Assembly: GCA_018826645.1 (NCBI GenBank)
Contig: JAHJZF010000050.1
Span: 1 to 36,295, forward strand
From: Patescibacteria group bacterium
Lineage (GTDB): Bacteria; Patescibacteriota; Minisyncoccia; UBA6257; Colwellbacteraceae
Direction of reading: 5' to 3'
DNA: 36,295 nucleotides
Shown: piece by piece, positions 7,999 through 19,215 of the stretch
Numbering within the stretch: the stretch's first letter is position 1
Layout of the letters: each line of letters starts with the position of its first letter
Notes under the pieces: model-generated
Database searches by the model: none
What the model was told of the DNA's origin: nothing
What the model saw: only the letters and a program-made list of their open reading frames with translations
Position numbers and translations under genes: made by a program

Positions 7999-9438
7999 AT
8001 GAGACCCAGACCCCGCCTTTTAGTAGACATAAAGAGGGGGTGGAGGGTTGATGTTTTTACCCCGCGGTCGGGGCGCGTCAACTTAAGCCCTATATCTAAA
8101 ACCAGAGAGAGAAGACCTCTGTTAAAACCAGTTTTGGGAGTGTTGGCCACTATTGGCTTTGTTCTTATGGCTAATGGTTCAGCCTTTGCTCCGATAGGGG
8201 GAGGAGTGAGAGCTTTGACCATAGAGCAGGAGCGTGAACAACTTGAAGGCCAGCTTCAAAAATTAGAACAAGAGGCAAAACAATACGAGCAGACTATTAC
8301 TGAGTATCGAAAAAAAGGGAATACCCTACAGTCTGAGATAGATCGTCTTAATGCTCGGATTGCTAATATTAATGGCCAAATTGGCACGATTACATCCTCT
8401 CTTAATAAATTAACTGGCCAAATTAAAACGACCAGTTCAAGAATAGAAGAGGTCCAAGGGAAAATAGGACGCAGCAAAGATAGTCTTTCAGAAGTCGTTC
8501 AGAGGATGAGTCGAGATGAAGAGAAGGGTGTTTTGGAGATTCTCCTTACCAATCAAAACCTCTCAGATTTCTTTACAAGCGTGAATGACCTTCTGGTGAT
8601 TCAAGACAGTCTAAAGGAATCTATTATGAACTTAGATCAATTTAGAGAAGAACTTATTACGCAAAAAGAGATTCTTGCGCTTGAGAGATCTGACATAGAA
8701 GCATTGCGTCTTTATCAGGTAAGGCAGAAGCAAGAGGTGGACTCTGTAAAATCTGATAAAAACAACTTGCTGGCTGTTACCAAAGGAGAAGAAGCCGTGT
8801 ACCAACAATTATTAAACATAACAGAGCAAACAGCCGCAGAAATTAGGGCTAGAATCTTCCGTCTTTTGGGTGGTGGACAAATGACGTTCGAAGAAGCTTA
8901 TAAATTTGCGAGCTACGTCGAAAAAAGAACGGGCGTGAGAGCGGCTTTGATATTGGCCGTATTAGATAGAGAATCTGCTTTAGGTAGAAATGTGGGGCAG
9001 TGTAATTATAAAACGGCCATGGCGCCTGGTCCGCCTGAGTCTAGCCGAGACGACATTACGCCTTTCTTACAAATTACTAAGGCTCTTAATTTGGACCCAG
9101 ACAAGACATTAGTCTCGTGTCCGATAGTGGCCGATGGTTATTATGGCGGAGCGATGGGTCCGTCTCAGTTTATCCCTAGCACTTGGGTAGGATATCAAGC
9201 ACGTATCGAAGCGGTAACTGGCAACAGGCCAGCCAGCCCGTGGAATAATTTAGATGCCTTCGTTGCTACGGGCCTTTATTTGAAAGATTCTGGAGCAGCT
9301 TCAAACGAGCTTGCCGCCGCCGCTCGTTACTACTGTGGAGGAAATTGGCAGAGGTATGTCTGTACGAACGTCTATGGAAAAGCCGTGATAGAAAGAGCCA
9401 CTGATTTTGAGAGAGACATCAAGATTCTCGGGGGCTAA
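7999..9438 (+). CDS. membrane-anchored coiled-coil protein with C-terminal lytic-transglycosylase-like domain
   Basis: Arg-rich N-terminus, TM/signal segment VLGVLATIGFVLMANGSAFA, then about 200 aa of heptad-like coiled coil. The C-terminal block LAVLDRESALG...GGAMGPSQFIPSTW resembles SLT/MltB-type transglycosylases. Confidence 0.6.
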   Translation: MRPRPRLLVDIKRGWRVDVFTPRSGRVNLSPISKTRERRPLLKPVLGVLATIGFVLMANGSAFAPIGGGVRALTIEQEREQLEGQLQKLEQEAKQYEQTITEYRKKGNTLQSEIDRLNARIANINGQIGTITSSLNKLTGQIKTTSSRIEEVQGKIGRSKDSLSEVVQRMSRDEEKGVLEILLTNQNLSDFFTSVNDLLVIQDSLKESIMNLDQFREELITQKEILALERSDIEALRLYQVRQKQEVDSVKSDKNNLLAVTKGEEAVYQQLLNITEQTAAEIRARIFRLLGGGQMTFEEAYKFASYVEKRTGVRAALILAVLDRESALGRNVGQCNYKTAMAPGPPESSRDDITPFLQITKALNLDPDKTLVSCPIVADGYYGGAMGPSQFIPSTWVGYQARIEAVTGNRPASPWNNLDAFVATGLYLKDSGAASNELAAAARYYCGGNWQRYVCTNVYGKAVIERATDFERDIKILGG

Positions 9439-10178
9439 GAAGACTTTTTCTCTTGTTCAGCCTTTTTGAAAGCTTTAACGATGGGCGACATGTCGCCTCC
9501 TAAAATTTTTTCTAAATTGTGCCACTTTTTGCCGATGCGATGGTCTGTGATTCTATCTTGAGGGAAATTGTAGGTTCTAATCTTCTCTGATCTGTCGCCG
9601 GAGCCGATTTGGCTACGCCTAAGTTCTCCCATCTCTGCGCCCTGCTCCTCGATTTGATTCTCGTAGAGTTTAGAGCGGAGAATTTCAAGAGCTACCTCGC
9701 GGTTACTTTGCTGACTTCTGCCTGCCTGAGAGCTGACTACTATGCCGGTTGGTTTATGAACCATTCGGACGGCTGTCTCAACCTTATTGACGTTTTGTCC
9801 TCCAGGACCGCTTGAGCGGAAAAATGAGATTTCAACATCGCCCAAGTTAAGCTCAACTTCTTGGGGCTCTACGACGGGCATAATAGCCACAGAGGCGGTA
9901 GAGGTGTGGACTCTGCCGGACTTTTCGGTTTTTGGGATGCGTTGGACGCGGTGGACGCCTGATTCGTGTTTTAGCATGTTGTAGACGCCTTCGCCTTTAA
10001 TTTGGGCGATAAAGTTTTTATAGCCGTCGAGAGTGGTCTGACTACTGTCTAAGACGGAGAATTTCCAGCCTTGGGTTTCGGAGAAACGTTGGTACATACG
10101 CACCAAATCGCCTGCAAAAATAGCGGCTTCATCACCACCTGCCCCAGCTCTTATTTCTAGTATTACTTTATCGCTCAT
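9435..10178 (-). CDS. prfA: peptide chain release factor 1 lacking the N-terminal domain 1
   Basis: Starts at the block LEIRAGAGGDEAAIFAGDLVRMYQRF (about residue 110 of E. coli RF1). PKT tripeptide at the PxT codon-recognition position (QRIPKTEKSGRVHTS). GGQ motif SGPGGQNVNKVETAVR. Only 247 aa. Confidence 0.85.
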   Translation of the reverse strand: MSDKVILEIRAGAGGDEAAIFAGDLVRMYQRFSETQGWKFSVLDSSQTTLDGYKNFIAQIKGEGVYNMLKHESGVHRVQRIPKTEKSGRVHTSTASVAIMPVVEPQEVELNLGDVEISFFRSSGPGGQNVNKVETAVRMVHKPTGIVVSSQAGRSQQSNREVALEILRSKLYENQIEEQGAEMGELRRSQIGSGDRSEKIRTYNFPQDRITDHRIGKKWHNLEKILGGDMSPIVKAFKKAEQEKKSS

Positions 10179-10225: not shown

Positions 10226-10579
10226 TTACTTAGATACCTTTTTAAGGGCCTTCTTTCCGCCGGAGGCGGATCCGCCTTTGGCGGAAGGTTTTCTGACGGG
10301 TTTGGCTTCTTCAACTTCAGCTGTTTTAGGCTTCTTTTTAGGGGAAGGCTTGCTCTTGGCAGAAGCTTTTGTGAGCTCTGCTTTAGCTCTGCGCGCCTTG
10401 AATTTCTCAACCCTACCAGCGGTATCGATAAGCTTCTCTTGACCTGTAAAGAAAGGGTGACAGGCGCTACATATCTCTACTTTCATTTCTTCATGAGTTG
10501 AGCCAATTTCATGTACTTTTCCGCATGAACAAACGATTTTCGCAGTTGTATAGTATTGTGGGTGTATATTCTTTTTCAT
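10226..10579 (-). CDS. rpmE: 50S ribosomal protein L31 with about 50-aa Lys/Ala/Pro-rich C-terminal extension
   Basis: [10 protein letters not shown]...CSCG...[10 protein letters not shown] is the canonical zinc-type L31. 117 aa versus the usual length of about 70. Confidence 0.9.
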
Positions 10580-10836
10580 CCCGTTAGAGACAGGGAGCGC
10601 TTTAACCTATTTCTAAGATAGCGTTTTCCCATGCCTGATTTTAGATATTTTTCTCTTGACCTTGAATCTTGTTCGTTTGTACAAGCCTCGTAATAGATTA
10701 GCTCAAAGGGTCCTCGATCCTTTGTGGAAGCCACCTTTCCAGACACATGTTCTTTAAAGCGCTTCCGTAAATCTACCGTAGAGCCAGTATACCAGTTCCC
10801 GTCCTTTTTGCTAAGAAGTACATATGTGTAATACAT
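10576..10836 (-). CDS. small GIY-YIG nuclease family protein (UPF0213-like)
   Basis: YYTYVLLS...[16 protein letters not shown]...E...KYLK matches the GIY-(10-11)-YxG, R, E core of GIY-YIG domains. 86 aa. The TGA stop overlaps the rpmE ATG (ATGA). Confidence 0.85.
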
Positions 10837-10854
10837 AGTGGTCTCTAACGGGAT
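10578..10854 (-). repeat. inverted-repeat-bounded element carrying the GIY-YIG ORF (arms 10578-10591 and 10841-10854)
   Basis: ATCCCGTTAGAGAC at 10578-10591 and its exact reverse complement GTCTCTAACGGGAT at 10841-10854. Confidence 0.7.
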
Positions 10855-10868
10855 AAATCAACGGCTGA

Positions 10869-10897
10869 ATTATCATGGATTACCCGCATATAGTCAA
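10869..10897 (-). promoter_or_regulatory. sigma70-like promoter for the GIY-YIG-rpmE-prfA operon
   Basis: Read on the minus strand: TTGACT (10897-10892), 17-nt spacer, GATAAT (10874-10869). This sits about 33 nt upstream of the GIY-YIG ATG. Confidence 0.45.
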
Positions 10898-11177: not shown

Positions 11178-11231
11178 GCTAGCATGTGCTAAGTGTCCGT
11201 CAGAAGTGGTGGGTACTTAGCACATGCTAGC
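11178..11231. repeat. perfect 17-bp inverted repeat (hairpin) at the left edge of the high-GC insert
   Basis: GCTAGCATGTGCTAAGT (11178-11194), 20-nt loop, ACTTAGCACATGCTAGC (11215-11231). Confidence 0.85.
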
Positions 11232-11262: not shown

Positions 11263-12609
11263 ATGCAGCGGTGCACCGGTAAGAAGAAGAACGGGAGCGA
11301 TTGTATGTCGCCGTTCATCGTGCCGGGCTCCAGCCCGTTGCGATGTGGGTGGCACCTCGAAGGTGCACCTCCCCCGAAGAGAAAGAAGGGAAAGATGGCC
11401 AAGGACAAGTCGGCGCGTCGCCGTATCGGCGCAGTAGAGACAGCGGTTACGAGCATTCAAGCTTCTGTGGCGAGCATTCCGCATGCCATGGCTACCGCGG
11501 TCCAGACTGCGTTCGATCGCGAGCGCACTGAGCGTGAGGCTGACGTTCGTCGTCTCAACGATCGGGTCAATGATGAGGGGCGTCGACGTCGTAACCTCGG
11601 AGGGTTCGTCGGTGGTGGACTTGGTTTGCTGGCGATCGTGGTCGCAATCGTTCTCTCCCTTATGGGAGGAAGGGTTGGGCGCAACGCCGACAACATCGGT
11701 GACAACGCCACGGCAATCACTGCCGTCAATGACCGAATCGACGGTGTCGTGACTTCCATCGCTGACTTGCGAGCTGATTTCGAGCGGTTCACGCTCGACT
11801 TCGGTCCGCGCGTTGGCGCTCTGGAGACAGATATCGCGGGCACCGACCAGGAGATCGCCGATCTCCGCGAATGGTTGAGCGATGAGCTCGGCTATATCCG
11901 CGGAGACATCCAGCGTTTCTACGATACGCTGGATGCGCGACTCCTAGTGGTCGAAGGTCGTGCCGAACCTATGACGACGGACGAGTTCCGTCTGATGGTT
12001 CTTGGCGTTCTCGCAGAGTGTGGCATTCCATGTCGCGTCTGCGAGATTCCTCCGTCGACGGTGCCTTACGCACCGCCGACAACCCGAGGAGGTGGTGGCT
12101 CGACGACGTCTACAACACAGGCGTCAACGACTACCACGGTGGCGCCGTCTACGACGACGACCACCGTGGCACCGACGAGCACGACGACTACGACCAGCAC
12201 TACGGTCCCGTCCACGACTAGCACGACGAGCACTACGACCACCGAACCGACCACGACTACGACCCTGAATGTCGGTCCTGAGATCATCTCGATTTCGGCG
12301 ACACTCGGGGAGACGAATTGTGAAGGTTTCGCAGAGGTCGTCTTCGGAGCGAGCGTCTCCGATCCAGACGGCGTGAGGTCGGTTGTGTTCTCTCTGGCAA
12401 ACGGCTCGTACTACTTGGGTTGGCACACTGTCACCGTGACGGCGACGGACAACCTTGGGGCATCGACGAGTCGCCCCTATAGGTTCAACGTCCCGGAGGT
12501 AGAGAATCCGGCGGCGTGCGGTAGTCAGCCCACCATTCCGACGGAGACGACGACCAGCACCACCGAGGGCGGTGGCAATCAGCCGACGATTCCGACGACG
12601 ATTCCGTAG
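11263..12609 (+). CDS. high-GC foreign-looking membrane/surface protein: Cys/His N-terminus, TM helix, coiled coil, Thr/Ser-rich linker, Ig-like C-terminal domain
   Basis: AGGAGG sits 6 nt upstream of the ATG. N-terminal C-x9-C-x13-C-x2-H (MQRCTGKKKNGSDCMSPFIVPGSSPLRCGWH). TM segment GGLGLLAIVVAIVLSLMGG. Low-complexity run TTSTTQASTTTTVAPSTTTTTVAPTSTTTTTSTT. The other long ORFs in this span are Arg-rich shadows typical of high-GC DNA. M45 (11395) is an alternative start. Confidence 0.7.
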   Translation: MQRCTGKKKNGSDCMSPFIVPGSSPLRCGWHLEGAPPPKRKKGKMAKDKSARRRIGAVETAVTSIQASVASIPHAMATAVQTAFDRERTEREADVRRLNDRVNDEGRRRRNLGGFVGGGLGLLAIVVAIVLSLMGGRVGRNADNIGDNATAITAVNDRIDGVVTSIADLRADFERFTLDFGPRVGALETDIAGTDQEIADLREWLSDELGYIRGDIQRFYDTLDARLLVVEGRAEPMTTDEFRLMVLGVLAECGIPCRVCEIPPSTVPYAPPTTRGGGGSTTSTTQASTTTTVAPSTTTTTVAPTSTTTTTSTTVPSTTSTTSTTTTEPTTTTTLNVGPEIISISATLGETNCEGFAEVVFGASVSDPDGVRSVVFSLANGSYYLGWHTVTVTATDNLGASTSRPYRFNVPEVENPAACGSQPTIPTETTTSTTEGGGNQPTIPTTIP

Positions 12610-15340: not shown

Positions 15341-15366
15341 GGAGTTAACCCACAAAGAGTCCTTGA

Positions 15367-15437
15367 CCCCGTTAGAGACCGCCCTCAACTTATGTTGACG
15401 GCTACGATCGTCTAGGGGTGCCCTGTCTCTAACGGGG
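15367..15437 (+). repeat. ORF-less hairpin doublet of the CCCGTTAGAGAC repeat family
   Basis: CCCCGTTAGAGAC (15367-15379), 45-nt spacer, GTCTCTAACGGGG (15425-15437). It shares the 13-mer CCCGTTAGAGACC and the 16-mer CCCTGTCTCTAACGGG with the GIY-YIG element read on the minus strand. Confidence 0.8.
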
Positions 15438-15465
15438 TTGACGGCAGATATTCGACTCATATAAT
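15438..15465 (+). promoter_or_regulatory. near-consensus sigma70 promoter of the 16S rRNA gene
   Basis: TTGACG (15438-15443), 16-nt spacer, TATAAT (15460-15465), about 240 nt upstream of the mature 16S 5' end. Confidence 0.6.
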
Positions 15466-15701: not shown

Positions 15702-17290
15702 AATTAGGAGGATTTGATCCTGGTCCAGGATGAACGCTGGCGGCGTGGATAAGGCATGCAAGTTGAGCGCTGTATTTTCAATTGACCAAACCTTCGGGCG
15801 AGGTCGCCGAAAATACGGAGCGGCAAACGAGTTAGTAACACCTTGGTATCTACCCCATACTCAGGAATAAGCCATCGAAAGATGGTCTAATACCTGATAG
15901 TCCCCGCTTTCGCTTTTCGTTTCACGAAAAGCTACAGCGGGCAAGCCGCAAGGCCTGCCCACCGTAGCTCCTAGTGGAGCGCAGAGCGAAGGTGGGGTAA
16001 AACTTTTGTGGTATGGGAGGAGCCTAGGCCCGATCAGCTAGATGGTGTGGTAATGGCGCACCATGGCTATGACCGGTAGGGGAGGTGAGAGCCTGACCCC
16101 CAACGACGGAACTGAGACACGGTCCGTACACCTACGGGTGGCCGCAGTCGAGAATATTCCACAATGGGCGAAAGCCTGATGGAGCGACGCCGCGTGCAGG
16201 AAGACGGCCTTCGGGTTGTAAACTGCTTTTCTAGGGGAAAAATATTGATGGTACCTTAGGAATAAGGAGTGGCTAAATTCGTGCCAGCAGCAGCGGTAAT
16301 ACGAATACTCCAAGCGTTATCCGAATTTATTGGGCGTAAAGCGTACGTAGGGGGCTTGATGCGTCTACTGTTAAATCTCACCGCCCAACGGTGAGGCCGC
16401 AGTAGATACGGTCAGGCTAGAGAATGCGAGAGGTCTGTGGAACGCACGGTGTAGGGGTGGTATCCGTTGATATCGTGCGGAACACCAAAGGCGAAGGCAG
16501 CAGACTGGCGTATTTCTGACCCTGAGGTACGAAAGCGTGGGTAGCGAACGGGATTAGATACCCCGGTAGTCCACGCCGTAAACTATGTTGACTAGCTGTT
16601 TCGAGTATCGACCCTCGGAGTGGCGCAGCTAACGCGTTAAGTCAACCGCCTGGGAAGTACGACCGCAAGGTTAAAACTCAAAGGAATAGACGGGGGCTCG
16701 CACAAGCGGAGGAACATGAGGTTTAATTCGATACTAAGCGAGGAACCTTACCTAGGCTTGACACCTAGACGAACGCCAGCCGAAAGGCAGGCTTCTGGAT
16801 TTATTCAGCGGCTAGGCAGGTGCTGCATGGTTGCCGTCAGCTCGTGTCTTGAGATGTACCATTAAGTTGGGAAACGAGCGCAACCCTCATCATCAGTTAC
16901 AAGTGTCTGATGAAACTGCCCTGATTCACAGGGAGGAAGGAGAGGATGACGTCAAATCAGCATGGCCCTTTGATGCCTAGGGCTACACTCATGTTACAAT
17001 GGCCGATACAAAGGGTTGCAAAGGAGTGATCCCAAGCTAATCCCATAAAGTCGGCCCCAGTTCGGATTGGAGGCTGCAACTCGCCTCCATGAAGTCGGAT
17101 TCGCTAGTAATCGCGCATCAGCTATGGCGCGGTGAATACGTTCCCGAGCCTTGTACTCACCGCCCGTCACGTCAAGGGAGCCGGGGACACCTGAAGCTTT
17201 AATTAATTTGAAGTTAGGGTGAATTCGGTGACATGGACGAAGTCGTAACAAGGCACGCGTAGCGGAAGCTGTGCGTGGAACAATTAAACT
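15702..17290 (+). rRNA. rrs: 16S ribosomal RNA, about 1.59 kb, with an expanded V2 region and no anti-SD tail
   Basis: 5' end ggaggatttgatcctggtccaggatgaacgctggcggcg. Internal universal blocks: gtgccagcagcagcggtaatac, ggattagataccccggtagtcc, aaactcaaaggaatagacggg, gcatggttgccgtcagctcgtg, ccgcccgtcac. 3' end gaagtcgtaacaaggcacgcgtagcggaagctgtgcgtggaacaattaaact. Confidence 0.95.
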
Positions 17291-17334
17291 TTGAGAATAG
17301 GTCCCCGACCTTAATCGGGGAGATATTGATCGAG

Positions 17335-17397
17335 CCCCGTTACATACGGGGCAAGCTCCGAAACTATTCGTGGAAAATCTGCGGGTATGTAACGGGG
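17335..17397 (+). repeat. variant hairpin doublet (CCCCGTTACATAC / GTATGTAACGGGG) in the 16S trailer
   Basis: Perfect 13-nt arms at 17335-17347 and 17385-17397 with a 37-nt spacer. It has the same CCCCGTTA..AC core as the 10.6-kb and 15.4-kb copies, with three compensated substitutions. Confidence 0.75.
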
Positions 17398-17520
17398 CGA
17401 GGAGTCTTTAAGTCTCGATTATCTGATTTCAACATCAGATTACTAATGACCTATTACCGAGGAGGCCCGCCACTGGCGGGTAAAGCTTGGGGCAACTAAA
17501 AAGTAAAATTACCTATATAA

Positions 17521-17576: not shown

Positions 17577-17981
17577 ATGTCCGAAGAAAAGATAAACACA
17601 GAAGTTAAGCAAAAAACCATTCTATTAGTTGAGGATGACGTTTTTTTGTCGAACCTTCTAATGTCGCGTCTTCAGAAAGCTGGCCTCAAGGTGGTTAAGG
17701 CAATGACGGGAGAGGAGGCAATCTCAATTTTAAAAACAGATAATGAGCCGGACTTAATATTGCTTGATATAATTTTGCCTGAGATGACGGGATTTGAAGT
17801 ATTGAAACAAATTCAGGAAGATCCGACTCTCGGCAAATCACCGGTTATTATTGCATCTAACTTGGGTCAAAGTACCGATATCGAAAGGGGTAAACAATTT
17901 GGAGTTGTGAACTATTTTATTAAAGCCCAGACGCCGATTGATAAATTGGTTGAAGAGGTCAAGAGAGTTGTGGGTAAATAG
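17577..17981 (+). CDS. single-domain CheY-like response regulator
   Basis: Receiver-domain residues are present: LLVEDD, phospho-acceptor context LILLDIILPEMTG, conserved S/T (IASN) and K (FIKAQ). 134 aa with no output domain. Confidence 0.9.
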   Translation: MSEEKINTEVKQKTILLVEDDVFLSNLLMSRLQKAGLKVVKAMTGEEAISILKTDNEPDLILLDIILPEMTGFEVLKQIQEDPTLGKSPVIIASNLGQSTDIERGKQFGVVNYFIKAQTPIDKLVEEVKRVVGK

Positions 17982-18021
17982 AGCTGTTCCACTTATTCAC
18001 CCCCCCCTCATTGCCCGAATT

Positions 18022-18030
18022 TGCTATAAT
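18022..18030 (+). promoter_or_regulatory. extended -10 promoter element upstream of the pilin gene
   Basis: TGcTATAAT at 18022-18030, about 40 nt upstream of the ATG at 18072. No good -35. Confidence 0.35.
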
Positions 18031-18071
18031 AAAGGCGTAAAAATAAAAAGTCGTTTTTAAGTTTAAATAAA

Positions 18072-18617
18072 ATGGAACAAACAAAAAAAGGTTTTACTTT
18101 AGTCGAACTTCTAATCGTAATCGGTATTTTGGGGATTTTAGCCGCTGCGGTTGTGGTGGTTCTAAACCCTGCTGAGCTTTTGAAGCAGGCCAGAGACTCT
18201 AAAAGGATGCAGGATTTGGTTAGCATTGATTCTGCTCTCGGTTTGTACCTAGTTTCGACCTCTACTCCTAATGTTGGTGACGGGGCGATTAATATAACGC
18301 AGACTGCAGGAGGGTGCGACGAGGGTGCTACTCCAGGCGTGGTGGCCACTAGAACAACGGATGGCGCCGGATGGGTTAATGTTGATTTAGACGAGCTTAC
18401 GGGAGGCTCTCCTTTATCTGTTTTGCCGATAGATCCTACTAACAGTGGCACTTACGCTTATTGTTACATGGGCAGTAGTACGCCTCTCACTTGGGAGCTA
18501 GCGGCTATTTTAGAGAGCACCAAGTTTGGTACGACTGATAACTTGGACGCAATTGATGGAGGAACAGACGATACGGTCTATGAGATTGGTTCAGACCTCA
18601 GTTTGATAACCAACTAA
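18072..18617 (+). CDS. type IV pilin (prepilin-type N-terminal cleavage/methylation domain)
   Basis: MEQTKKGFTLVELLIVIGILGILAAAVVV has the class III signal peptide: G|FTLxE plus a hydrophobic helix. Confidence 0.9.
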   Translation: MEQTKKGFTLVELLIVIGILGILAAAVVVVLNPAELLKQARDSKRMQDLVSIDSALGLYLVSTSTPNVGDGAINITQTAGGCDEGATPGVVATRTTDGAGWVNVDLDELTGGSPLSVLPIDPTNSGTYAYCYMGSSTPLTWELAAILESTKFGTTDNLDAIDGGTDDTVYEIGSDLSLITN

Positions 18618-18624
18618 CATTGGT

Positions 18625-19215
18625 TTGAGCGAAATTCTTGTTAGTTTTATTCCAACCGTCCTTGTTGTGGGGGCGGTTGGTCTTGTGTTGAGAGTAAGAA
18701 AAGGACGAAATAAAGCACGCTCTTTGAAGGGTGCTTTTTATATCTTTGTATTACTTGTTTTCTCGTATAGTAGTTGGCTAAGCTATTTGCAGTACAAAAT
18801 ATGGGCGGGTAACGAACTTGGAAGATATTTTCTTCCTGAATATCAGGTGGGATACTTCTACTTCTATTCATTTACCCTTTTTTTCTTACCCTACTTACTA
18901 TCCTTTATTTTGGGGGCACTTTTCATATATTTACTGACTAAACTTAACAATAGTCGCGACAAGACGTTGTTTGAGGACGAAGAGCCCTATATTGCAGGGC
19001 TCTTTATGTTCTTATCTGGCTATCCGGGAATCTTAATATATTTTGTTTCGATACTTGCCGTATATCTGCTCTGGCACATAGTCGAAATGTTTAGGGGGGC
19101 AAAAGATGTTAGGTTGCCCCTTTACTATTTATGGCCAATCGCCGCCCTTTTAATGATATTGGTTTGGCGCTCCTCCTTCGTAAGGTCTGATATCTGGTTA
19201 CTTCTAAAAATCTAA
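18625..19215 (+). CDS. polytopic membrane protein of unknown function inside the pilus cluster
   Basis: Five to six hydrophobic segments. TTG start. I recognised no family motif, and no GxGD-type aspartyl peptidase box. Confidence 0.55.
   Translation: MSEILVSFIPTVLVVGAVGLVLRVRKGRNKARSLKGAFYIFVLLVFSYSSWLSYLQYKIWAGNELGRYFLPEYQVGYFYFYSFTLFFLPYLLSFILGALFIYLLTKLNNSRDKTLFEDEEPYIAGLFMFLSGYPGILIYFVSILAVYLLWHIVEMFRGAKDVRLPLYYLWPIAALLMILVWRSSFVRSDIWLLLKI

Follow-up and report, generated by a model that had tools for sequence, protein, structure and literature searches.

Single-domain GIY-YIG nucleases accompanied by a cognate repeat have a described precedent in the Ssn family, whose members are proteins of ~94 aa (cd10448) which cleave single-stranded DNA (ssDNA) beside a cognate hairpin repeat termed NTS/SRM (Chenal et al., 2025, Nat Commun, PMC11893778). 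The portions of that paper drawn on here describe repeats which flank the ssn gene and are scattered through the genome, and its authors point out both the NTS-ssnA-NTS layout, resembling an insertion sequence (IS), and the analogy to RAYT transposases and their REP sequences. A related arrangement is found in the window, i.e., the whole stretch of 36,295 nt analyzed here (contig JAHJZF010000050.1 of assembly GCA_018826645.1, a Patescibacteria group bacterium of the Colwellbacteraceae), where an inverted repeat brackets an open reading frame (ORF) for an 86-aa GIY-YIG protein directly upstream of rpmE. On balance, this region is probably one copy of a compact, horizontally spreading element similar to IS and to MITEs (miniature inverted-repeat transposable elements), mobilized by its own GIY-YIG nuclease. 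Since the Ssn precedent exists, the element is not categorically new: the concept of a nuclease with its cognate repeat is already published, and the element is a distinct variant of it which is undescribed as far as the literature search shows. This search, which covered the repeat motif and combinations of GIY-YIG with MITE, REPIN or transposase, found no description of an element that combines a GIY-YIG gene with inverted ends and target duplications. An earlier reading of the window from sequence only (the sequence-only reading) had assumed that no equivalent was described, an assumption outdated by the Ssn family with its flanking cognate hairpins, as reported in the same portions of that paper.

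The sequence-only reading had instead compared the locus to RAYTs and REPINs. The comparison holds insofar as a single-copy nuclease-type gene is linked to dispersed, short palindromic repeats which spread as non-autonomous doublets and combine a conserved sequence tag with a stem that needs just to pair. It fails in that the arms represent both ends of a single element whose “loop” holds the ORF. RAYTs belong to the HUH/Y1 enzymes (IS200/IS605 type), act on ssDNA and leave no target duplication, REPINs are pairs of separate REP hairpins, and both are mostly inherited vertically. In contrast, GIY-YIG is the sole domain here and no HUH/Y1 transposase is encoded, each doublet forms one stem and the arms one long-range stem rather than two local REP hairpins, 4-bp target duplications are present, and the element looks horizontally spread, judging from its sequences in different phyla.

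With IS and MITEs, the element shares terminal inverted repeats, a short target duplication of fixed length with corresponding empty sites, one small ORF, internally deleted non-autonomous copies with the same ends, paralogs and decay. It differs from them in that it encodes no transposase of a recognized class (DDE, DEDD, serine, tyrosine or HUH), its sole protein being the 86-aa GIY-YIG nuclease, and in that its ends show compensatory covariation of the hairpin type. At 275 bp, it is far below the size of any autonomous IS known to us. Homing endonucleases such as I-TevI and the T4 Seg proteins have the GIY-YIG catalytic core in common with the window protein, are likewise selfish, and sit between or ahead of conserved genes. 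However, they carry DNA-binding extensions and, because they spread by homologous repair of the empty allele which they cut, they are without inverted ends, target duplications and miniature derivatives. By sequence and fold, the closest group is formed by the UPF0213 or prokaryotic Slx1-like proteins (BH0048, 1zg2; EF2693, 1ywl; E. coli YhbQ type), although the clade of the element is set apart by a conserved C-terminal helix with FLSLTG at its end. We know of no report which links UPF0213-type proteins to flanking inverted repeats or to mobility.

Complementary Ends Bracket the Same Gene Across Phyla

In the window, ATCCCGTTAGAGAC and its exact reverse complement enclose the 86-codon GIY-YIG ORF (Table 1). 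All coordinates given by the sequence-only reading for this perfect 14-nt inverted repeat were borne out, and so was the placement of its arms, one ending 4 nt (CACT in gene orientation) upstream of the GIY-YIG ATG and the other covering the last codons and the start of rpmE. The final two bases of the latter arm are the AT of the rpmE ATG, and the nuclease stop codon overlaps this start codon for that reason.

A comparison of 80 homologous genome loci covered Patescibacteria, Omnitrophota, Nitrospirota, Thermodesulfobacteriota (Desulfobacterota), Planctomycetota, Elusimicrobiota, Endomicrobia and one metagenome-assembled genome (MAG) of the Woesearchaeota, a DPANN archaeon. In 73 of these loci, CCCGTTAGAGA arms with at most one mismatch bracket the same ORF of ~86 aa, with CCCGTTAGAGA located a few nucleotides ahead of the ATG and its reverse complement over the last codons, and in four further loci the arms have diverged yet are still complementary. 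The element was defined as Y-CCCGTTAG…CTAACGGG-R with ends of ~13 bp, a definition which was applied to 101 copies. The consensus ends read Y-CCCGTTAG(A/N)4 ... (N/T)4CTAACGGG-R, and ends of 13–14 bp are complementary across the 101 copies, as in the terminal inverted repeats of IS and MITEs. In the window, the ends of the element were set from these copies and from three empty sites, and homology between same-genome paralogs stops just beyond them. The outermost A:T pair of the 14-nt repeat is probably flanking target sequence rather than part of the element.

The pairing of the two ends is maintained by compensatory change. Over 58 distinct arm pairs, 98.4% of the cells in the 14-bp helix are paired and 7 of the 14 pairs show compensatory changes (87 cells), values reached by none of 500 shuffles, while slid controls pair in 33–46%. 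The core CCCGTTA was fixed by the anchoring of the alignment; the G and A adjoining this core are conserved in >90%, and the inner arm positions 9–11 vary freely with complementarity kept. Within the 3′ arm, the Ser, Leu and Thr codons are always TCT-CTA-ACG, the third base of the Gly codon (GGR, either A or G) covaries with its partner base in the 5′ arm, and the encoded C-terminal peptide ...KRFLSLTG is near-invariant across homologues. The 3′ repeat thereby doubles as the last four nuclease codons in 73–77 of the 80 loci and in many phyla, which argues that repeat and ORF co-evolved as a unit.

Target Duplications and Empty Sites Point to Mobility

An exact 4-nt direct repeat flanks 49 of the 101 copies, whereas permuted flank pairings yield 16 on average and 24 at most. 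The duplications comprise nine distinct 4-mers which mostly follow TNNA, namely TGAA (25 copies), TTTA (11), TAAA (4), TGAG (3), TGGA (2), and TTCA, TTGA, TCAA and CTCG (one copy each); TGAA and TGAG dominate in copies of the Patescibacteria type. It is because of this TNNA bias that positions −2 and −5 seemed paired and that 14 instead of 13 complementary bases had been noted. Alternative boundaries, i.e., one without the −1/+1 pair or an asymmetric end, fit fewer copies than Y...R with a 4-bp duplication.

Relatives supply three empty sites which confirm that insertion duplicates 4 bp, two of them for ORF-less copies in the window and one for an ORF-bearing copy at ychF. The nearest syntenic relatives of the window belong to Candidatus Colwellbacteria, and two relatives, L090 and L091, share its order of fn3/PhoD protein, 16S, response regulator and pilin. 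At the position of the copy at 17335–17397, both read TTGAT-CGAG-GAGTC where the window reads TTGAT[CGAG]-element-[CGAG]GAGTC, a clean empty site. The copy at 15367–15437 is likewise missing from both, and TTGA abuts the conserved 16S promoter TTGACG-16-TATAAT, with a less clean alignment on the left side. In the Saccharibacteria loci L032 and L058, the ychF gene is interrupted by an ORF-bearing copy in the context ...TAAAATAGACGC-A[TGAG]T-CCCG...CGGG-A[TGAG]TTTATC, whereas L096, the closest ychF relative with 77% aa identity, shows ...TAAAATAAACGC-ATGAGTTTATC, and L097–L101 are similarly uninterrupted.

Further evidence comes from the rpmE site itself. The sequence-only reading had proposed comparing the region upstream of rpmE in relatives, and the comparison revealed a decayed remnant in L085 and L086, with a mutated 5′ arm (ATGCCGTTAGAGAT), the sequence ATGTATTACGCATACGTA..., a truncated ORF, large deletions and no 3′ arm, and no trace of the element in L087–L089, where the whole neighborhood is syntenic. 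The rpmE genes of the relatives have the same start (ATGAAAAAG) and no intact element. As far as the data allow, none of the three outcomes which that reading had named as speaking against it was encountered, namely conservation of the ORF and its flanks as ordinary syntenic sequence across distant relatives, confinement of the motif to the window sites, and absence of flanking repeats from other GIY-YIG paralogs. Two paralogs from one Elusimicrobiota single-cell genome (L026 and L044) can be aligned between GTTYAC-CCCG and a point slightly beyond the 3′ arm, outside which their flanks are unrelated; the 11 nt that they share past this arm include the downstream ATG. Because of the target duplications, the empty sites, the same-genome paralogs and the decayed copy, the repeat family as such can be regarded as mobile with high confidence, as judged from genome comparison.

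The relatives of the nuclease amount to 5355 clusters at 90% identity (73–83% identical to the window protein among the matches listed) and to ~1000 clusters at 50% identity (E ≤ 1e-10). Assembly GCA_043819735.1 encodes the same GIY-YIG protein as the window. Across phyla, the nuclease is 70–83% identical, compared with just 73% for rpmE of the nearest relative, and the closest protein relatives among the matches listed (83% identity) are encoded not at rpmE but within a type I restriction-modification operon, where hsdS and hsdR flank them. On four metagenome contigs (L092–L095, ~2470–2770), the element lies in a type I restriction-modification operon which also holds a DUF3800 gene, and there the hsdS frame reads through the 5′ arm and stops just ahead of the nuclease ATG.

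The same data bear on the possibility that the inverted repeat is an RNA-level device alone, i.e., a stem between distant parts of the mRNA by which the nuclease and rpmE are controlled in their translation, and no mobile-element end. A promoter-like site just upstream of the 5′ arm (Table 1), conserved in the syntenic relatives L085 and L086, makes it probable that GIY-YIG, rpmE and prfA share one transcript holding both arms. Within this predicted transcript, a 17-bp stem appears in the minimum-free-energy and the centroid structure, and the overlap of the nuclease stop with the rpmE start would suit such control. However, the fold of the whole region is unremarkable (z-score −1.68), and identical ends are carried by ORF-less copies which sit in non-coding DNA, have target duplications and are matched by empty sites. 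These insertion polymorphisms largely refute an explanation by RNA alone, which is thereby rendered very improbable, although the stem could have an additional role in RNA.

ORF-Less Copies and Their Position Beside 16S rRNA

Doublets with identical ends and no ORF, 31–155 bp in length, number about 32–39 in the same loci. One of them (L081, 3043–3161) keeps the first 19 nuclease codons, which indicates that ORF-less copies derive by internal deletion. A sub-lineage of the ORF-less copies is characterized by extended arms (...AGAAGCCGCGATCGC). Most ORF-less copies contain a short GC-rich stem-loop, e.g., GGTTGCCTAAGGGCAACC, located 2–3 nt inside one arm (L020, 542–607; L025, 26–88; L035, 2114–2184; L077, 3264–3381), which the ORF-bearing copies are without and which might act as a terminator or as a second recognition hairpin, or simply be a remnant. 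In a Nitrospirota MAG (L017, 1181–3503), five ORF-less copies of 95–107 bp cluster within 1.6 kb just downstream of a tmRNA gene; the GIY-YIG gene of this locus ends in ...SLPR and is without the usual bracketing arms.

The two doublets of the window, one of them a variant, had been noted by the sequence-only reading and proved to be real, each with a perfect 14-bp stem, and through their shared ends and the evidence for mobility they join the nuclease ORF in one repeat family, as that reading had supposed. What it had missed is that they sit one on each side of the 16S rRNA gene (15702–17290). In the first doublet, the arms at 15366–15379 and 15425–15438 enclose a loop of 45 nt, and folding of this copy as ssDNA gives z-scores of −4.7 and −6.3; the TTGA on its right belongs to the −35 element TTGACG of the 16S promoter (15438–15443), followed by TATAAT at 15460–15465. 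In the second, which lies 45 nt past the 3′ end of the 16S gene, the arms at 17334–17347 and 17385–17398 enclose 37 nt, and GAGAC is swapped for CATAC, matched by GTATG on the other arm, with compensation at three positions. Overall, CCCGTTANNNAC occurs six times in the window against 0.18 expected, a number reached in none of 100 shuffles, and the 14-mer at ≤2 mismatches occurs four times against 0.24 expected.

A function of the hairpins in rRNA processing, or as a general feature of tRNA and rRNA genes, was rejected, given that 22 other loci with ORF-less copies have no tRNA or rRNA gene nearby, bar one tmRNA. A 16S-linked role of both flanking doublets was likewise dismissed, relatives being without either copy, and Rfam returned no match on any arm or doublet of the window or of the loci with ORF-less copies, so that a known RNA family was rejected. 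The 16S rRNA gene itself is solitary, with no 23S or tRNA gene after it; a response regulator and then type IV pilin/T2SS-like genes (17577–19215) follow directly, in an order kept in Colwellbacteria relatives. Beside the 16S 3′ end, L091 (2787–3300; Colwellbacteria GCA_040900445.1) carries an additional ~500 nt which are absent from the window and from L090 and contain a match to the group II intron D1–D4 model RF01998 with 37.6 bits (gathering score 35).

The GIY-YIG Protein as Candidate Mobilizing Enzyme

The 86-aa protein consists of a single domain matching Pfam PF01541 (E 1.5e-16, 60.9 bits, cut-off 22.6), with an additional weak match to TIGR01453. A sequence search of the PDB retrieved UPF0213 BH0048 (1zg2; E 3.7e-11), and the AlphaFold2 model (pLDDT 90.9) comprises three strands and three helices, the last of which is a long, basic C-terminal helix. 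In the Foldseek ranking, the same BH0048 structure is followed by Slx1 and then I-TevI, with ranks 1–8 taken by UPF0213 and Slx1 structures. The protein thus falls into the “standalone Slx1-like” group of GIY-YIG proteins (Dunin-Horkawicz et al., 2006). Among 30 homologues, Y5, Y16, R26, H30 and N76 are invariant and E62 is conserved in at least 90%; by motif order, these residues would correspond to the catalytic Y6/Y17/R27/H31/E75/N90 of I-TevI. The nuclease looks active, given its conserved catalytic residues and confidently predicted fold.

Being the sole gene on the element, the GIY-YIG ORF is the obvious candidate for the mobilizing enzyme. The sequence-only reading had suggested this role, of which the exclusive presence on a mobile element is an observation and the activity in movement a deduction; a share of the nuclease in the movement of the element appears slightly more plausible than its absence. 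Alternatively, the ends might represent a MITE/IS set moved by an unlinked transposase, for instance a DDE enzyme producing 4-bp duplications, with GIY-YIG as a homing- or addiction-type passenger nuclease in some copies. Terminal inverted repeats with a 4-bp duplication are the classical DDE signature and ORF-less copies are common, both of which would suit a passenger, and GIY-YIG nucleases hydrolyze DNA whereas joining is not known for them (Dunin-Horkawicz et al., 2006). A passenger would, however, hardly be expected to have its last four codons built into the repeat across many phyla, nor to be under the strong purifying selection which the nuclease shows across phyla. Moreover, no other gene, cargo or transposase was seen between the arms in ~0.45 Mb of loci, and the hosts include Patescibacteria with tiny genomes. 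The passenger explanation is therefore considered unlikely. A larger IS sharing the same ends was also rejected, since the unpaired arm-like matches are either solitary arms or due to chance, and since the sequence between arms holds no transposase. Single-protein and alignment queries of IMG/VR viral contigs found no relative, and a phage-borne origin was rejected accordingly, while plasmid relatives were limited to three weak matches, one of which (Azospirillum) served as the Ssn-type control.

Comparison With Ssn Nucleases and SRM Repeats

The element and the Ssn systems, as far as the latter are covered by the portions of the paper used here (PMC11893778), are alike in their small single-domain GIY-YIG nuclease of ~90 aa, in a gene bracketed by its own cognate repeat with more copies dispersed, and in the pairing of each protein subfamily with its own repeat. 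They differ in the repeat, which consists here of CCCGTTAG-type arms 250 nt apart and in Ssn systems of local 28-nt hairpins (CGTCATTCCCGCGMAVGCGGGAATCYRG), and in the position of the ORF, which here lies inside one element and contributes its C-terminal codons to the repeat. The 4-bp target duplications and empty sites of the element are also not among the Ssn features noted in those portions. Furthermore, the C-terminal third of the protein differs from the Ssn type KKWNRDWK...NP.W.DL, and the hosts are mostly uncultivated phyla missing from RefSeq.

The published SRM pattern, HGTCWYN0-2YYVSBRHN0-5WNVSBRGN0-2RNCYNB, has no match in the 36-kb window as opposed to four in the positive control L084, and an identity of the repeat with SRM/NTS was rejected on these grounds. 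This control, the Azospirillum lipoferum 4B plasmid NC_016623.1 (255506–255799), carries a 97-aa GIY-YIG gene between sufB and sufC with a head-to-head pair of near-identical NTS-like hairpins CGTCATCCCCGCGAAGGCGGGGATCCAG on each side, a textbook Ssn/SRM locus in an Fe-S cluster operon. The window protein is 33% identical over residues 2–66 to this SRM-flanked homologue, which served as proxy for SsnA (pairwise E 9e-12), with the C-terminal third unaligned; its similarity to UPF0213 BH0048 is about as strong. Canonical SRM hairpins (TGTCATTCCCGCGAAGGCGGGAATCTAG) were found in three Patescibacteria loci which also hold the CCCGTTAG-type element (L033, 3696–4041; L071, 1037; L075, 2489). In L033, it is a second GIY-YIG gene of the Ssn-like kind, and not the CCCGTTAG-type one, which has the SRM hairpin 6 nt ahead of it. 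As SRM hairpins adjoin a different GIY-YIG gene in these shared loci, the two systems are separate, i.e., they are parallel nuclease–repeat pairings as far as can be read from their sequences.

These observations also bear on a functional explanation modeled on Ssn, in which the protein would be a host-maintained, site-specific ssDNA endonuclease and the hairpins its recognition sites, for instance to limit or shape incoming or replicating ssDNA, with mobility past or secondary. Such a role would draw on the described precedent of small GIY-YIG nucleases which, in the portions of the paper used, cut ssDNA beside cognate hairpins that flank genes (PMC11893778), on the 33% identity to the Azospirillum homologue and on the hairpins, which fold well as ssDNA. 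On the other hand, the divergent C-terminal third, the lack of SRM matches in the window and the association of SRM hairpins with another Ssn-like gene in shared loci (L033, also L071 and L075) all set the element apart from Ssn, and its decay at the rpmE site together with its patchy presence favors a selfish element over a maintained host function. This explanation is thus judged even less likely than that of a passenger nuclease.

Insertion at Start Codons

Of 69 full copies, 37 have an ATG at the 3′ boundary, directly after CGGG, and in 29 of the 37 it starts an ORF with a length of 50 codons or more, compared with 30% for any ATG in these loci. The host genes affected are diverse and include rpmE, ychF, pyrG and an accD-like gene, among others. 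Conversely, 33 of 70 copies have an ATG immediately ahead of the 5′ arm, and in 18 of the 33 it leads in frame and without interruption into the nuclease ORF, with products of 93–95 aa which start MNPVRD or MSPVRT. The ychF insertion illustrates both: the element lies after ATGAG, the original ATG, 6 nt past a TAAAAT box, now heads the nuclease, and the terminal A of the element together with the duplicated TG remakes the host ATG over the nuclease TGA. From such overlaps, translation of the nuclease and of the host gene may be coupled.

Where TTTA is duplicated, no stop codon results, and the nuclease ORF runs on into the downstream gene. This applies to five loci of Omnitrophota and relatives (L005, L015, L020, L022 and L038), in which the right flank is GTTTAC, no stop follows ...SLTG and the ORF extends for 126–302 codons. 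Some of the downstream genes at these GTTTAC-flanked loci have prepilin-like N-termini (GFTLLE), giving apparent nuclease–pilin fusions of 205–388 aa.

A Possible Mechanism and Its Implications

The element that emerges, best explained as mobilized by its own nuclease, would operate as follows. The nuclease would recognize the invariant CCCGTTAG tag in the stem formed by the two ends and cut at the stem base, the stem forming in single-stranded DNA or in an extruded cruciform, as for Ssn nucleases. The strict pairing of the free arm positions speaks for a stage at which both ends join in a stem, be it an ssDNA hairpin or a cruciform, though such an intermediate is less certain than the involvement of the nuclease. 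Insertion usually duplicates 4 bp of target, mostly TNNA, and copies of the Patescibacteria type are often found at the very beginning of a host coding sequence, within its first codons. The ATG of the host gene, together with the promoter or leader belonging to it, then leads in frame into the nuclease ORF, while the terminal A and the duplicated TG remake an ATG over the nuclease stop (ATGA), which would allow the host gene to be translated by coupling. In this “start-codon capture,” the element would borrow promoter and ATG of the host for its own ORF and return translation through the remade, overlapping ATG. Internal deletion yields ORF-less hairpin copies of 31–155 bp, and the doublets flanking 16S are such copies, presumably mobilized in trans. 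A bolder proposal, which is ventured tentatively, holds that the 86-aa GIY-YIG protein is the transposase of an unrecognized class of prokaryotic transposons and that the element is the smallest autonomous one (~275 bp), moving via a hairpin or cruciform of its ends and a 4-nt staggered target cut, with start-codon capture.

Several points weigh against mobilization by the nuclease. To our knowledge, no GIY-YIG enzyme catalyzes strand transfer, and a 4-bp duplication is the typical product of a DDE transposase. Covariation of the ends would also be expected if both merely matched one binding protein, so that a hairpin intermediate is not proven by it. The copy at rpmE has the flanks TTTA and TGAA and thus no direct repeat; it is among 17 of 69 full copies with inverted flanks (left TTYA, right TRAA), and a further 22 of the 69 fit neither the direct nor the inverted pattern, so that the proposed mechanism accounts for insertion in part. 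Copies flanked by TTYA and TRAA may stem from blunt or microhomology insertion into TTYA|TRAA, from selection for a stop codon in the right flank, or from recombination between copies. Re-joining of a split ribosome-binding site through the stem was considered and dropped, as Shine-Dalgarno-like motifs just upstream of the 5′ arm occur in 24% vs 22%, which is not significant. Finally, only three copies are visible in the 36 kb of the window, the part of the genome examined.

If the nuclease drives movement, GIY-YIG would join DDE, HUH, serine, tyrosine and Cas1 enzymes as a catalytic class of prokaryotic transposition, and one represented by an element small enough for complete dissection. This would also provide a context for thousands of genes annotated as “GIY-YIG nuclease family protein” in uncultivated phyla and for their cross-phylum identity of 70–83%. 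The family may serve as a tracer of gene exchange among Patescibacteria, Omnitrophota, Planctomycetota and a DPANN archaeon. Relative to the Ssn concept, insofar as it is laid out in the portions of the paper used, it adds a second, unrelated repeat type paired with a small GIY-YIG nuclease, together with target duplications and empty sites. The combination of an invariant CCCGTTAG tag with a free stem beside it hints at a new nuclease, specific for both sequence and structure, that could be of use in DNA tools. Moreover, insertions at start codons and beside a 16S promoter will mislead gene callers, yielding N-terminally extended nuclease ORFs and nuclease–pilin fusions.

Coordinates and Neighboring Genes

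Table 1. Parts of the rpmE-linked element and further copies in the window (positions are those of the forward strand).
Feature	Position	Strand	Description
Full ORF-bearing element, 275 bp	10579..10853	minus	T-CCCGTTAGAGAC ... GTCTCTAACGGG-A, covarying −1/+1 pair included
5′ terminal inverted repeat	10841..10854	minus	Minus-strand reading A|TCCCGTTAGAGAC; conserved in 73/80 homologous loci
3′ terminal inverted repeat	10578..10591	minus	Minus-strand reading GTCTCTAACGGGA|T; codes nuclease S-L-T-G; A of the rpmE ATG supplied by its end
GIY-YIG nuclease ORF, 86 aa	10576..10836	minus	Standalone Slx1/UPF0213-like domain, Pfam PF01541
rpmE (L31), host gene	10226..10579	minus	ATG overlapped by nuclease TGA stop as ATGA
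Promoter-like TTGACT-17-GATAAT	10869..10897	minus	~8–15 nt upstream of 5′ arm; 10/12 consensus positions, consensus match only
ORF-less MITE-like copy, 71 bp	15367..15437		C-CCCGTTAGAGAC ... GTCTCTAACGGG-G; TTGA duplication at 15363–15366 and 15438–15441
ORF-less copy, 63 bp	17335..17397		C-CCCGTTACATAC ... GTATGTAACGGG-G; CGAG duplication at 17331–17334 and 17398–17401

Two neighboring genes show features of their own. The prfA (RF1) ORF downstream of rpmE (9435–10178, minus strand) encodes just 247 aa, its PCRF domain match begins at model position 100 and the N-terminal part is missing; orthologues in relatives are equally short (243–246 aa), which points to a lineage trait rather than a truncation artifact. 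On the plus strand, an ORF of 448 aa (11263–12609) has no Pfam match, long runs of Thr, Ser and Pro, and a G+C content of 53–55% compared with ~42% around it. Ahead of this ORF lies a perfect 17-nt inverted repeat (GCTAGCATGTGCTAAGT / ACTTAGCACATGCTAGC, 11178–11231), and the position of the ORF is occupied in relatives by a hypothetical one of 349–419 aa.

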